DNA of 64,000 nt, taken from NCBI GenBank assembly GCA_030753015.1, contig JASMDC010000007.1, forward strand, positions 32,001 through 96,000. Direction: 5' to 3'. Positions 14,361 to 16,531 of this stretch are shown in pieces. This DNA is from Candidatus Undinarchaeales archaeon. Lineage in GTDB: Archaea > SpSt-1190 > JASMDC01. Position 1 is the first letter of the stretch, and each line of letters opens with the position of its first letter. The notes beneath the pieces were generated by a model. It saw only the letters and a program-made list of their open reading frames with translations, was not told the DNA's origin and did no database searches. The position numbers were made by a program, and so were the translations under genes.

Positions 14361-15323
14361 TCAGTCGTCCCCGGGAGCCTCGTTGACATCGCCGAAGAGG
14401 CCGTCCACGAGCCGCTGGCTCGCGGTCCTGACGGGAAATGAGACCACGAGCACGCATCCCGCGGAGAACAGTCCCGAGAGGCGGAGCTCGCCCAGGTACC
14501 GGGTGGCAAGGAACTCCTCGAGCACCTCCTCGACGACCAGGAATACGACGGTGAGGGCTACGCTCAGGAACGTGTACACAAAGCTCCTTCTCACGATGAT
14601 CTCGATATCGAGCAGATGGTCCTTCACGATACCGTAAGCGATCGTACCACCCGTAAGGGTCATGAACACGATCCCTACGTTCACCTTGAGCGGCAGGGAC
14701 AGGACGGCAGTGCTTATGACCATGATGCCATAGCCGATGAACGGGAAGAGGCATCCAAGGAGGAAGTACGACGACCGCCGCTTCAGCTCGGGATCCTTCA
14801 CCTGCCTGAAGGTGAGCGTGAAGATGGCGATAGGAAGGAACGACAGGAGACCCTGAGCGTTGTTGAACACCATCATGAGCCCTGATGGAGCGAGGAAGAC
14901 GCCGCTGTACAGGCCGAACATCGACTCGTCCGCCTCGACGACGTTGGCGAAGAGGCGGTCCGGGGCGAGGATGATGGCCGCGAGGAAGAGGACAGGGACC
15001 GCATAGATGACCAGGAGCCTCTTGTCCTGTAGGAAGGTGCCCCTGCTCCGGTAGAGCAGAGCAAAATGGGAGAGGACCGTGAGCGTGATGGCGGTGCTGA
15101 TGAAATGGACCGACATCCACGTGGTCCATGTGCCTATGTCCAGGCTGCATGACGCCATGGCGGCACCGACAGCGATCATGGAGGTGAAGAACAGGCACGC
15201 GGCGTTCATTTGCACGAACAGTCCTTTCTCACGCTTGTGGAGCAGGAACATCGACAGGCCGAGACAAACGAGGAAGGAGATGAAGTAGGGGACAGACCAG
15301 AGGTTGAGGAAATAGCCCGTCAT
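14361..15323 (-). CDS. stand-alone 7TM sensor-type membrane protein (HisKA_7TM-like)
   Basis: About nine TM segments and AYGIVKDHLLDI, typical of 7TM sensor domains. No cytoplasmic output domain. Confidence 0.7.
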   Translation of the reverse strand: MTGYFLNLWSVPYFISFLVCLGLSMFLLHKREKGLFVQMNAACLFFTSMIAVGAAMASCSLDIGTWTTWMSVHFISTAITLTVLSHFALLYRSRGTFLQDKRLLVIYAVPVLFLAAIILAPDRLFANVVEADESMFGLYSGVFLAPSGLMMVFNNAQGLLSFLPIAIFTLTFRQVKDPELKRRSSYFLLGCLFPFIGYGIMVISTAVLSLPLKVNVGIVFMTLTGGTIAYGIVKDHLLDIEIIVRRSFVYTFLSVALTVVFLVVEEVLEEFLATRYLGELRLSGLFSAGCVLVVSFPVRTASQRLVDGLFGDVNEAPGDD

Positions 15324-15397
15324 CGGACGTCATACCGTGGACTATCCTTAAAAGTTAGTGCGCTGCGTGCTCGCCGAGCGGCTATCGCCCTCCCCGT

Positions 15398-15409
15398 AAG
15401 GTTTATATC
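15398..15409 (+). promoter_or_regulatory. archaeal BRE/TATA promoter for the putative ncRNA
   Basis: AAGGTTTATATC lies about 30 nt upstream of the structured region. Confidence 0.65.
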
Positions 15410-15431
15410 CCTGGATGATCCCAATCCAGCT

Positions 15432-15750
15432 ACCTCCGGCCAACAGGGACTATTGTCCAGTGGCTGTAACAAGGTTCTATCCATCATCGGGGATCGCTAC
15501 CATGGCGGTCCCCTTTGGTGGCCCCTGTCTTTTCCGGCCGAGAGTGTTGCTATTCCAAGCCGTCCCTGAGAGGAGTAACCAGATGGTTGACCCTCGGCTC
15601 AGACACCTCGTGCGGCCATCGGGGACGCTGTCCCCGTACATTAACATGTGGTCTTATCATCGCCGGGGGTCGCCGATACGGTGGCCCCCGCCGGTGAAAT
15701 CGTTCTATGACGACCGGGAGGGGTACTATTTCTGTATGGTCCGGCCGTGC
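15432..15750 (+). ncRNA. putative structured ncRNA with two homologous domains
   Basis: Two 11-bp hairpins (15489-15513 and 15665-15689) differ by compensatory changes. Both domains are closed by CGGCC/GGCCG stems. Upstream TATA box and no credible ORF. Confidence 0.6.
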
Positions 15751-15817
15751 CCTGACGCGCCCAAACAGTAACTTTTTATACCCCGTCCCCTGCCGTGGAG
15801 CGTTGGCGGGGTATGCC

Positions 15818-16531
15818 ATGTACTTGATGGAGGAGTCAAATGATGCACCCGGTGATGAGGGGACCTCGGACCTCCTAGTTCTGTACGACATGGACGGAAC
15901 CCTGTTGCAGGGGGATGGCCTGCGTAACGTGTACGAAGGCATAGGTGGCGAACCCCTGGACAACGTGGAGGAGGCACATGCACGGTACGGGAACGGCGAG
16001 ATCGGCTACTTCGATCTGCATCGGGCATCGATGGAGAACCTCAAAGGCGTCGAGGCCTCGCTCGCACAAGAGCTGGCTGGGGCGACACCTCTCTTCGAGG
16101 ACGCGACGGTGATCGTCGATTACATGGTCGCTCGTGGCTACGACCAGTCCATCCTCTCCCACAGCCCGACGGACCTCATAGCACCGCACGCCCAAAGATT
16201 GGGGATCGGGACCTACTTCGGCGTCGACATGGTCTGCGAGGGCGGTCGTTATACCGGAGATACGAACACAGCGTCCAACTACACACGGACCCTTCTGAGC
16301 GACATGGACGCCAAGGCCACGGTCATGAGGGACCTGGCACAAGGTCGGAAGGTGATCGCCTTCGGGAACGGCAGCAACGACTACAGTATGCTCGATGCCG
16401 CGGACATGGGCTTCGCCATACACGCAAACCAGCATCTTCGGGAACTGGTGGAGGACGGGGACAGCCAGAACATCTACTTGGTGGACTCGTTCGAGGAGGC
16501 GATAGAGGTCCTTGATAGGGAGCTTGGATGA
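15818..16531 (+). CDS. HAD-IB hydrolase (phosphoserine phosphatase-like)
   Basis: YDMDGTL, LSHS, K and FGNGSND motifs. TATA TTTTATA at 15774-15780. Confidence 0.85.
   Translation: MYLMEESNDAPGDEGTSDLLVLYDMDGTLLQGDGLRNVYEGIGGEPLDNVEEAHARYGNGEIGYFDLHRASMENLKGVEASLAQELAGATPLFEDATVIVDYMVARGYDQSILSHSPTDLIAPHAQRLGIGTYFGVDMVCEGGRYTGDTNTASNYTRTLLSDMDAKATVMRDLAQGRKVIAFGNGSNDYSMLDAADMGFAIHANQHLRELVEDGDSQNIYLVDSFEEAIEVLDRELG

Follow-up and report, generated by a model that had tools for sequence, protein, structure and literature searches.

A tandem locus in a Candidatus Undinarchaeales archaeon and the lineage-restricted family of small structured RNA genes to which its two domains belong

Tandem riboswitch aptamers, such as those of glycine, consist of two homologous domains behind one promoter, upstream of a gene. 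Orphan multi-copy RNAs which act as protein-binding scaffolds or decoys include the Y RNAs and the CsrB-type sponges. Box C/D RNAs are recognised by a C box (RUGAUGA), a D box (CUGA) and a short terminal stem that flanks them. To our knowledge, very few structured RNA families have been described from uncultured archaea.

The window, that is, the whole stretch of DNA that was analysed, is 64 kb long. Its first-pass annotation had pointed to an undescribed, promoter-driven, structured non-coding RNA made of two homologous domains, and this view holds in that Rfam gave nothing at gathering score over all 64 kb. With moderate confidence, positions 15396-15777 of the + strand are read here as the gene of a two-unit (dimeric) RNA that belongs to a new family of small, structured, non-coding RNAs confined to this lineage.

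Layout of the locus in the window

The locus and its neighbour comprise the following features.

15396-15409 (+): BRE/TATA promoter of copy A, GTAAGG followed by TTTATATC, a near variant of the genome's strong promoter word
15411-15429 (+): promoter-proximal inverted repeat CTGGAT..ATCCAG, between the TATA box and the predicted start (family alignment)
15412-15551 (+): copy A, diverged; P1 15437-15441/15536-15540, P2 15447-15458, P3 15481-15521
15429-15432 (+): predicted transcription start, from the G of CCAG to the A of CUA, by TATA spacing (15402 + 30 = 15432)
15530-15533 (+): T4 run in the 3' part of copy A, which may act as a partial terminator
15552-15594 (+): linker, the decayed promoter region of copy B, without a recognisable TATA box (alignment and reading)
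15595-15727 (+): copy B; P1 15613-15617/15712-15716, P2 15620-15636, P3 15657-15697, A/U-rich joiner 15698-15711
15728-15772 (+): variable 3' tail of copy B, unconserved across the family; its presumed extent is set by the next T run
15773-15777 (+): T5 run that probably terminates the A-B transcript and overlaps the TATA box of the HAD gene
15818-16531 (+): gene of a HAD-family hydrolase (Pfam HAD E 3.6e-12, Hydrolase E 8.1e-11), a neighbour outside the RNA

The promoter sequence AAGGTTTATAT was read at 15398-15408. Behind it lie the two domains, and every element that the first-pass annotation had described was found in its place or close to it. The CGGCC...GGCCG closing pairs and the AUCAUC motif were read in the sequence, and GGAC/GUCC hairpins are located at 15447-15458 and 15621-15635. 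The long hairpin of copy A is formed by GGGGAUCGCUA (15489-15499), a CCA loop and UGGCGGUCCCC (15503-15513), and that of copy B by GGGGGUCGCCG (15665-15675), an AUA loop and CGGUGGCCCCC (15679-15689). Compared pair by pair, the two differ by A-U to G-C twice, U-G to C-G once and G-C to G-U once, exactly the pair-preserving differences that had been claimed. In addition, the P1 of copy A (CGGCC/GGCCG) compensates that of the family (CGGUC/GACCG).

The two domains are truly homologous. Among the 15 family members, copy A finds its nearest relative in copy B (56% identity, vs 41-50% to the others), and the locus is therefore read as a tandem duplication. This duplication is old, and copy B subsequently lost its TATA box. 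The sequence that had been taken for a linker hairpin is present (15566-15602), but it is actually the decayed promoter-proximal region of copy B; GGAGTAAC occupies the position in the linker where TTGATAAG would be expected. Similarly, the extra CCGG/UCGU stem noticed in domain B does exist, but it competes with the base of the long hairpin, which is better supported.

Both copies are matched by a covariance model built from the family (copy A at 76.8 bits and E 3.8e-14, copy B at 109 bits and E 1.5e-21) and by nhmmer (E 4.3e-14 and E 1e-23, respectively). The fold of copy A (15428-15551) has z = -3.52 and that of copy B (15601-15727) z = -3.10. For the whole region (15425-15775), the + strand shows z = -3.97, with 0 of 100 shuffles as stable, and the - strand z = -1.05, with 14 of 100. 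The conserved A/U-rich joiner and the 3' motif of the family are missing from copy A, which, judging by its sequence, looks like a decaying and not a co-operating copy.

The predicted start was calibrated on two other genes of the genome, as the first T of the TATA box is placed 30 nt ahead of the 5' end of the 5S rRNA and 29-30 nt ahead of the SRP RNA model start. The T5 run at 15773-15777 is the first one past copy B, at +46, and the 5S rRNA gene of the same genome ends directly at such a run. Since copy B is without a TATA box, A and B are probably co-transcribed as one RNA of about 345 nt, from 15429-15432 to 15773-15777. The HAD gene has a TATA box of its own (15773-15780), in agreement with the initial view that it is separate from the RNA. 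In the expression look-up, two of the 24 runs were RNA and were compared with their DNA counterparts, all four being contigs. The metatranscriptome contigs over the locus, at 16131-16381 and 16279-16400, both lie in the HAD gene, and contigs cannot show absence.

Distribution, promoters and fold of the RNA family

Each domain of the window is one copy of a family of RNA genes of ~135 nt (about 125-145 nt). The two-domain layout had been considered as the defining character, namely that of a tandem aptamer or ribozyme; the unit is instead the single domain, of which this genome holds ten copies (76.8-142.8 bits, by BLAST and the covariance model). A covariance-model search had been suggested for the domains, and it matched copies in this genome and in its sister species. 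The same ten copies were recovered with nhmmer --max from all 3.85 Mb at E <= 4.3e-14, and beyond them the next match in these 3.85 Mb, reverse-strand matches of the copies themselves aside, had an E of only 0.36. Eight of the ten are single units or separately promoted neighbours, and typical members are single units with their own promoter of the SRP RNA type.

The sister species contains four copies and a metagenome contig one ortholog. No copies were detected in the other 15 genomes of the phylum that were searched, in the viral contigs searched or in two motif scans of the genomes of other species. At least 119 stretches of unrelated bacteria fitted a loose motif; these were taken as chance matches, unscreened with the covariance model. 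The five ortholog pairs are 71-92% identical, and in the two pairs whose flanks were compared (C106/L029 and C34/L030) the flanking DNA is visibly alike. Paralogs share 41-83% identity, with the exception of the tandem pair C37a/C37b (91%).

A BRE/TATA box is found at every copy but B, either as CGAAAGGTT[TG]A[TA]A itself or as near variants. The strong word GAAAGGTT[TG]A[TA]A occurs 13 times in the genome, about 4-5 times at family copies and once at the SRP RNA gene. The inverted repeat of copy A has its counterpart in the alignment as GGTGG-CC-CCACC of other copies, and GGTGGCCCCACC occurs six times genome-wide, four of them at family promoters. This shared repeat may serve as an operator.

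The copies adjoin unrelated genes, with a convergent downstream gene at four of the nine loci. When 428 flanking ORFs were compared all against all by blastp, no neighbouring protein proved common to different loci, the only matches being translations of the RNA and overlapping windows of contig C37. The HAD protein, used as query, was not found in the sister species, though the RNA family occurs there. As the neighbours are unrelated and unshared, the family is not considered cis-regulatory, and nothing points to control of HAD or to self-cleavage.

The first-pass annotation had named SRP and RNase P RNA as classes to be checked, and the locus is neither. The SRP model (RF01857) gave nothing in the window at gathering score, nor at E <= 10 in 15300-15900, and the RNase P model (RF00373) had no match in the window; the respective RNAs of the genome are located at C42:39551-39852 (149.4 bits) and C62:42017-42302 (146.3 bits). 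The 5S model (RF00001) at E <= 1 identified a single locus in each genome, here C40:73675-73790 with 82.2 bits, and left all family copies unmatched. Rfam over 15300-15900 returned only noise of E > 2, no Rfam riboswitch or ribozyme matched that region or two other family copies at E <= 10, and ARAGORN predicted 0 tRNA or tmRNA genes in 15000-16200. In the text available for the matches listed, the literature on Undinarchaeota and on multicopy archaeal structured RNAs gave no report of such a family. The family is thus previously undescribed and without a detectable relative, and this newness refers to the family itself.

The shared fold is a three-helix junction, in which conserved single-stranded stretches connect P1, P2 and P3. 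The short helix P1 (CGGUC/GACCG) closes the junction and has P2, a hairpin whose length varies, stacked on it; P3 is a conserved hairpin of ~20 bp with a UCAUC/GGUGA base. The alignment contains 15 sequences (ten of this genome, four of the sister species and one of the metagenome contig). Standard pairing is found in 93.9% of the 345 cells (23 pairs), vs 39-63% with the partners slid, and neither the pairing nor the covariation score was reached by any of 500 shuffles. For instance, column pair 85/120 is C-G in eight sequences, G-C in four, G-U in two and A-U in one; P2 changes in length across copies with its pairing kept; and C117 differs from its ortholog by a C-G to U-A change and by a GGGA vs GUGA loop. 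The sequences represent ~3 species in two main groups, in an alignment fitted to the model, and covariation here therefore rests on few events. Support for P1, a short helix, is weak: one pair shows a two-sided change, and two pairs each fail to form in 3 of 15 cells.

The helix cells include 33 G-U against four A.C, an excess which favours the + strand. All 15 copies have a lower MFE in sense than in antisense, and the mean fold z is -3.38 for the sense vs -2.48 for the antisense strand. The four nucleotides just before the predicted start co-vary with the four after AUCAUC (86.7% paired; G-C 7, C-G 6), and this stem is left unexplained by the sense RNA because its 5' half precedes the UCAG start. 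Eleven of the 15 copies have no run of four or more Ts within 260 nt, so that their 3' ends are undefined.

Several further structural readings were abandoned. On visual inspection, C52, C117, C37b and copy B seemed to allow a long-range helix that would pair the variable 5' segment with the 3' tail; in the ortholog of C52, however, none of four changes compensates. An alternative P1 (GUCAU/GUGAC) pairs in 89.3% of the cells, but one of its pairs is disrupted in 5 of 15 cells, and just a single two-sided change is seen. GGUGAAA, GUGACGA and AGUA were also inspected by eye as a K-turn, loop E or GNRA receptor, none of which gave a clean fit. As regards a seed or guide role of the 5' variable segment, complementary 11- and 12-mers are no commoner in the genome, self-hit excluded, than in shuffles.

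Alternative readings of the copies

The functional RNA could be read from the - strand, as a guide RNA of the box C/D-like type, some 75-95 nt long, with a 4-bp terminal stem flanking the C and D boxes and the variable 10 nt as D guide. This we consider unlikely. The reverse complement of the copies contains a C box AUGAUGA (from UCAUCAU, present in most copies), a C'-like CGAUGA (UCAUCG on the sense strand) and, as D box, CUGA (sense UCAG). Of the 15 copies, 11 have an intact D box, and it is broken in the other four (CUGG in C37c and copy A, CCGA in two others), while a D' box is absent, with GGUA in place of xUGA. The C'-to-D spacing is 13 nt, internal D' and C' boxes being expected some 12 nt away from C and D with a short loop between them, and the 16-31 nt P2 hairpin between the D' and C' positions is atypical.

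The stem flanking the boxes speaks for the C/D-like RNA. It co-varies (column pair 4/85 with G-C 7 and C-G 6, column pair 1/88 with C-G 7 and G-C 3), its 86.7% pairing falls to 35-62% when slid by 1-2 columns and to 6.5-50% when slid by 3, and its 5' half precedes the predicted start of the sense RNA, so that the sense model does not account for it. The variable segment is 9-11 nt long in 14 of 15 copies, and a fibrillarin gene is present (284 bits). Weak - strand Rfam matches occur at three copies (snoR53Y, SNORD74, sR28, sR23, sR36 and sR41), with E 0.4-7 and 9-16 bits vs cut-offs of 39-55. On the contrary, the canonical promoter is on the sense strand, the excess of G-U over A.C (33 to 4) includes P2, which would be inside the putative C/D RNA, and P3 and the conserved 3' part would have no place in it.

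The targets of the supposed guide also argue against it. The D-guide 12-nt segments have 2-4 mismatches to the 16S/23S of the sister species, shuffle means being 2.8-3.5; the rRNA local alignment scores of all 15 copies are within the shuffle range; and the guide segment is largely replaced between orthologs. In the case of C60, a 12-mer identical to the 3' region of the 16S rRNA adjoins the C box, but it is lost in the ortholog (2 mismatches). Mimicry of the 16S 3' end was considered for this 12-mer; by estimate, ~0.3 such matches are expected by chance when every 12-mer is counted, and it was treated as a coincidence. A strict regex for canonical double-guide C/D genes had 0 matches in the genome, which thus offers no example for comparison.

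Improbable to a similar degree is that the copies are remnants of a MITE-like or IS-derived repeat, or a DNA-level signal, without RNA function, their apparent structure being palindromic GC-rich DNA. The family is multi-copy and confined to one genus, contig C37 holds three copies within 4.5 kb beside a TnpB-like gene, the HAD gene of the window locus has no counterpart found in the sister species, and the antisense strand also folds better than shuffles (mean z = -2.48), all of which speaks for this reading. However, the identity levels of paralogs (41-83%, C37a/C37b 91%) and orthologs (71-92%), together with the similar flanks of two pairs, indicate old genes and not recent transposition. 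The homology runs from a promoter of working type to a non-palindromic 3' motif, no terminal inverted repeats are seen in the family alignment, and pairing in the stems is preserved by G-U and two-sided changes that are clearly biased towards one strand. Viral contigs gave no match, nor did the model match near the 3' end of TnpB, where a guide RNA would be expected.

Still less probable is an RNA of ~320-345 nt whose two domains work jointly, as a ribozyme or as a tandem aptamer (riboswitch), with possible control of HAD through read-through or interference at the shared T5/TATA box. The arrangement of the locus is consistent with it, as A and B are sister copies with B lacking a TATA box, the terminating T5 overlaps the TATA box of HAD, both RNA and gene have the same orientation, and the region folds stably as a whole (z = -3.97). 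Against it stand the eight of ten copies that are single or separately promoted, the unrelated neighbours with four of nine downstream genes convergent, the lack of an Rfam riboswitch or ribozyme match at E <= 10 in three copies, the loss of the A/U-rich joiner and 3' motif from copy A, and the sister species, in which HAD was not found and the family is present.

An encoded product of the 118-aa ORF at 15415-15771 is highly improbable, even though its frame is open: open frames are common on both strands of this GC-rich DNA, the ORF matches no Pfam family at E <= 0.01, its ATG (15415) comes after the TATA box (15402-15409) but ahead of the predicted start (15429-15432), and no coding constraint is seen, protein-level conservation having been the observation that the first-pass annotation held against an RNA, since 176 nt (2 mod 3) separate homologous anchors of A and B, which puts the same nucleotides in different frames, P2 inserts among copies measure 5, 7, 8, 14, 16 and 17 nt, and three of the five ortholog pairs have 1-nt indels.

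Proposed role and comparison with known RNAs

The preferred reading is a family of small structured RNAs with the window locus as its dimeric member. Each unit would be transcribed from a strong archaeal BRE/TATA promoter, and the RNA would act in trans as a scaffold, its conserved junction and the P3 base serving to bind a protein or small ligand. The numerous paralogs may provide dosage or variants, and the inverted repeat between TATA box and start might allow one transcription factor to control all copies. As regards function, a trans-acting scaffold RNA that binds a protein or a ligand is our best guess.

A bolder and quite tentative extension is a new archaeal RNA class, with ten co-regulated three-helix-junction genes, a lineage-specific ribonucleoprotein, a possible reading of both strands and a derived two-headed dimer. 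In the both-strand version, a sense scaffold would coexist with an antisense C/D-like RNA, whose terminal stem would explain the co-varying bases upstream of the start.

An RNA with a conserved fold, a clear promoter and as many as ten paralogs in a genome is usually abundant and has a cellular partner. The genomes of this marine lineage measure 3.6-3.8 Mb, vs 0.6-1.2 Mb in the rest of the phylum (set searched), and since they are several-fold larger the family could be tied to the distinctness of the lineage. A defined RNA, a candidate operator sequence and the question of the strand provide experimental handles.

In comparison with the stable RNAs of the same genome, the family has the promoter word of the SRP RNA gene (GAAAGGTTTATA), the predicted TATA-to-start spacing of the 5S and SRP genes, and the probable T5 end, three-helix junction and similar size of the 5S RNA. 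It differs from them in having ten copies vs one, and in showing no sequence or model similarity to SRP, RNase P or 5S RNA, whose models each have one other locus above cut-off and are not listed by the Rfam scans (E <= 10) of the window and two family copies.

With tandem aptamers the window shares two domains behind one promoter and a gene downstream. Unlike them, the family unit is normally single, its neighbours are unrelated or convergent genes, it lacks an expression platform and an Rfam match, and copy A is degenerate.

The omega RNAs of TnpB/IscB are similar in their constant structured scaffold with variable ends, and one cluster is near a TnpB-like gene. However, the family has its own promoters, does not occur at the tnpB 3' end and has no TnpB near seven of the ten copies; in the C37 cluster, the copies are >600 nt upstream of the start of the TnpB-like gene. 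The covariance model had no match at the 3' end of this gene, and neither the HEARO model nor the other models of Rfam gave one.

Like the archaeal box C/D sRNAs, which assemble with L7Ae, Nop5 and fibrillarin, the family has many copies and a variable segment whose length is fixed. As for the Y RNAs and the CsrB-type sponges, a Ro60/TROVE gene was found in neither of the two genomes of the genus, unlike Y RNA systems, and the repeated GGA-type loop motifs of the CsrB type are not seen in the family; it resembles both, however, in its paralogous genes, its structured core with a variable periphery and its independence from any fixed gene neighbour.

Discovery and distribution of the RNA family

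The first-pass annotation had proposed a strong BRE/TATA box followed by two homologous domains of the same element order. The box AAGGTTTATAT is indeed read at 15398-15408 and both stretches were found 3' of it on the + strand. The long hairpins, GGGGAUCGCUA-CCA-UGGCGGUCCCC (15489-15513) and GGGGGUCGCCG-AUA-CGGUGGCCCCC (15665-15689), differ by exactly the pair-preserving changes described, namely two A-U to G-C changes plus a U-G to C-G and a G-C to G-U change.

A search at the DNA level showed partial matches of domain B on two further contigs of the assembly that holds the window (G000; 3.85 Mb, 117 contigs) as well as in the same-genus genome of a sister species (G001), and blastn with these loci provided additional copies. 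The covariance model R1, built from 11 aligned copies (134 positions, 22 pairs), bore out the homology of the two domains. It detected 10 copies in G000 including both of them (76.8-142.8 bits) and four in G001 (83-137 bits), the remaining six rows in G000 being reverse-strand echoes (E 0.03-0.77). Since this search scored just 150 of ~2000 first-look candidates, nhmmer --max was run over the whole of G000. The same 10 copies were found (E <= 4.3e-14) and the next match had an E of 0.36, setting aside reverse-strand matches at the copies (E 0.00012-0.77). The family is real, consisting of predicted, previously undescribed structured RNA genes.

The distribution of the family is narrow. Of the 17 genomes from the class, a set that coincides with that of the phylum, R1 detected it in G000 and G001 and in none of the other 15, which are 72-94% complete. 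The DNA search found it in two out of 41 relatives and other archaea. Two independent motif patterns, applied to 185,579 species with a single genome each, gave 9 and 51 loci, of which R1 confirmed two and three, respectively, all from one MAG and with scores equal to those of the G001 copies. Matches of a looser pattern, tried first, were taken as chance. The first of the two patterns showed no loci in viral contigs and 15 in metagenome contigs, where two are real: L168 is identical to copy C37c, and in L161 a third species supplies an 85% ortholog of C117. Within the reach of these searches, just one genus-level lineage, marine or from seawater by its run labels, carries the family. Both genus genomes measure 3.6-3.8 Mb versus 0.6-1.2 Mb in the other 15, and the placement of this large-genome lineage in the class or phylum may deserve scrutiny (contamination is given as 5%).

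Fold, strand and promoter

In the alignment of 15 family sequences (A4), the following elements are ordered downstream of the predicted start, all on the sense strand:

5' variable segment, first in order: 9-11 nt in 14/15 copies, variable in sequence but fixed in length
P1: CGGUC, whose partner GACCG lies close to the 3' end
P2: hairpin immediately 3' of P1, 4-11 bp, inserts of 5-17 nt; GGGA, GUGA or GCGA loops in long forms
Conserved joiner, P2 to P3: ~16-20 nt
P3: hairpin of ~20 bp, base UCAUC/GGUGA, mid-part GGGGGCC/GGUCCCC
A/U-rich joiner: 3' of P3
P1 3' strand: within GU(G/U)ACGACCG
Tail, at the 3' end: often GGAGGAGUAC

On this alignment, which was fitted to the fold model, the three helices are paired in 93.9% of 345 cells versus 39-63% with partners slid by 1-3 columns, counts behind which few independent events stand because the sequences derive from roughly three species and form two main groups. 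None of 500 column shuffles matched the observed pairing or covariation score, and two-sided changes appear in four pairs, compared with 27/500 shuffles. The clearest of these is the pair of columns 85/120 (C-G 8, G-C 4, G-U 2, A-U 1). A C-G to U-A change separates the P2 hairpins of C117 and its ortholog L161, with the GNRA-type loop kept. P1 is the weakest helix.

The helices hold 33 sense-only G-U cells versus four A.C cells. For the stretch between the predicted start and the conserved 3' motif, sense MFE is lower in all 15 copies and the sense z more negative in 14 of them, C37a being the exception (mean z -3.38 versus -2.48 antisense). The recognisable promoter is also on the sense strand. 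A single column pair points in the opposite direction, as an extended P1 would hold a conserved A.C in sense that is G-U in antisense. At the window locus (15425-15775), the + strand folds with z = -3.97 (0/100 shuffles equally stable) and the - strand with z = -1.05 (14/100).

A BRE/TATA box opens every copy except B. The promoter word CGAAAGGTT[TG]A[TA]A is exact in four copies and the rest carry near variants, including GTAAGGTTTATAT of copy A. Genome-wide, GAAAGGTT[TG]A[TA]A is present 13 times, with five of these sites belonging to family copies and one to the SRP RNA gene. The first T of the TATA stands 30 nt upstream of the 5' end of 5S rRNA here and 29-30 nt upstream of the SRP RNA model start. 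For the family, this spacing predicts initiation at UCAG(Y)A, a conserved element found at 15429-15432 in the window. Consistent with it, the same strong word is located ~33 nt upstream of an apparent tRNA gene start (G000:C31:61477).

Between TATA and predicted start, four of the six genomic occurrences of the inverted repeat GGTGG-CC-CCACC stand at family promoters, which suggests that it may be the site for a dedicated regulator. Conservation of the interval's inverted repeat exceeds that of the RNA's first 10 nt, and the repeat is almost family-specific in the genome. The window has its own form, with other examples at L007:4778 and 5079 (C37 region of G000):

15411-15429, + strand: GC-rich inverted repeat CTGGAT..ATCCAG, in the TATA-to-start interval

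The tandem locus of the window, probably two-headed

15412-15551, + strand: copy A (R1 76.8 bits)
15530-15533, + strand: T4 run within copy A, which could halt some transcripts
15595-15727, + strand: copy B (R1 109 bits)
15773-15777, + strand: T5 run, the first past copy B, overlapping the TATA box of the HAD hydrolase gene

Copy A is closest to copy B (56% identity, versus 41-50% to all others), and thus the pair is an old tandem duplication forming its own branch. Copy B shares 56-64% identity with the remaining members. Copy A retains all three helices, its P1 (CGGCC/GGCCG) compensating the family's U-A pair, but has lost both the A/U-rich joiner and the motif GACGACCG. The expected TATA position of copy B reads GGAGTAAC instead. 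The linker hairpin proposed earlier was not upheld, as this stretch aligns with the promoter-proximal element and UCAG of other copies. A second tandem pair, C37a/C37b (91% identical, ~300 nt apart), keeps both promoters. The T5 run resembles that directly 3' of the 5S gene. Since the TATA of copy B is gone and the T5 comes first after it, we infer the start, end and co-transcription of one two-headed RNA of ~345 nt, driven by one promoter and ending at the T5. The window locus is a derived dimer of the structured RNA family.

Contigs from two RNA libraries cover the 3' part of the HAD gene at 16131-16400, where DNA carry-over is possible. This hydrolase (15818-16531) was not found in G001 with the window protein as query. 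On the other side, a 320-aa membrane protein (14361-15323, - strand) matches only HisKA_7TM, the N-terminal 7TM of histidine kinases (E 3.3e-15), with no kinase domain at E <= 0.01.

Candidate roles and known RNA classes

An alternative reading, in which the loci encode a box C/D RNA on the reverse strand, draws on four bases just 5' of UCAG, before the predicted start, that co-vary with four bases after AUCAUC (86.7% of cells paired; columns 4/85, G-C 7 and C-G 6; columns 1/88, C-G 7 and G-C 3). This co-variation is the chief point that the sense reading does not account for. On the reverse strand this stem borders AUGAUGA and CUGA, weak Rfam C/D matches recur there, and fibrillarin is encoded. 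However, a D' box is absent, the D box is broken in 4/15 copies, guide segments match G001 rRNA no better than shuffles, the strand bias favours the opposite strand, and P3 and the 3' motif are left without explanation. The single exact 12-mer, UCGUAACAAGGU in the C60 copy (L013:1501-1636, - strand), equals positions 1424-1435 of the G001 16S rRNA (L179), in its universally conserved 3' region. It is probably due to chance, as the C60 ortholog has two mismatches (copy A matches 10/12). We consider this reading improbable. No 16S or 23S rRNA genes were found in G000, whose 5S gene is at C40:73675-73790; the G001 16S-23S operon lies on C14 (30276-34979).

Across all 64 kb of the window, the Rfam scan proposed earlier gave no match that reached gathering score, and in 15300-15900 it listed only three hits, at E 2.6-7. 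SRP RNA, RNase P RNA and 5S rRNA were each found once elsewhere in the genome above cut-off, and ARAGORN reported no tRNA in 15000-16200. A cis-regulator was rejected, the genes beside the copies being unrelated:

M28 peptidase and methyltransferase
DAO oxidoreductase and DUF3795
Pyruvate kinase
TnpB-like gene
Nucleotidyltransferase and GH32
Aldehyde:ferredoxin oxidoreductase
CofE and beta-CASP hydrolase
7TM protein and HAD (window)

The downstream gene is convergent at 4/9 family loci, and the 428 ORFs that flank them share no recurrent protein. The TnpB-like gene of the C37 region (L007:2804-3982, - strand; 392 aa, OrfB_IS605 and Cas12f1-like TNB domains) lies ~640 nt downstream of C37a, with three family copies within 4.5 kb and a 97-aa ORF without Pfam match (L007:4221-4514) in between. 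Coding by ORF 15415-15771 is dismissed by its ATG upstream of the predicted start, a 176-nt offset (2 mod 3) between homologous A/B bases, P2 inserts of 5, 7, 8, 14, 16 or 17 nt, and 1-nt indels in 3/5 ortholog pairs.

Within the structured RNA family, conservation falls on the strands of the junction and on P3 in its lower half, with free variation in the 5' segment, P2 tip, P3 loop and 3' tail. Even orthologs that are 82-92% identical overall have had the 5' segment replaced, and its complementary sites show no excess in the genome, so a spacer fits better than a seed or guide. The overall reading is one we hold to be rather probable. Within it, the conserved junction, free periphery, many paralogs and lack of a fixed neighbour tentatively point to an RNA that would engage a protein or ligand in trans through this junction. 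A Ro60/TROVE gene was found in neither of the genus genomes.

Regarding known systems, the likeness to box C/D RNA lies in the reverse-strand stem directly flanking its two box-like motifs. The boldest reading would have both strands used, with a box C/D-like reverse-strand RNA in addition to the sense RNA.
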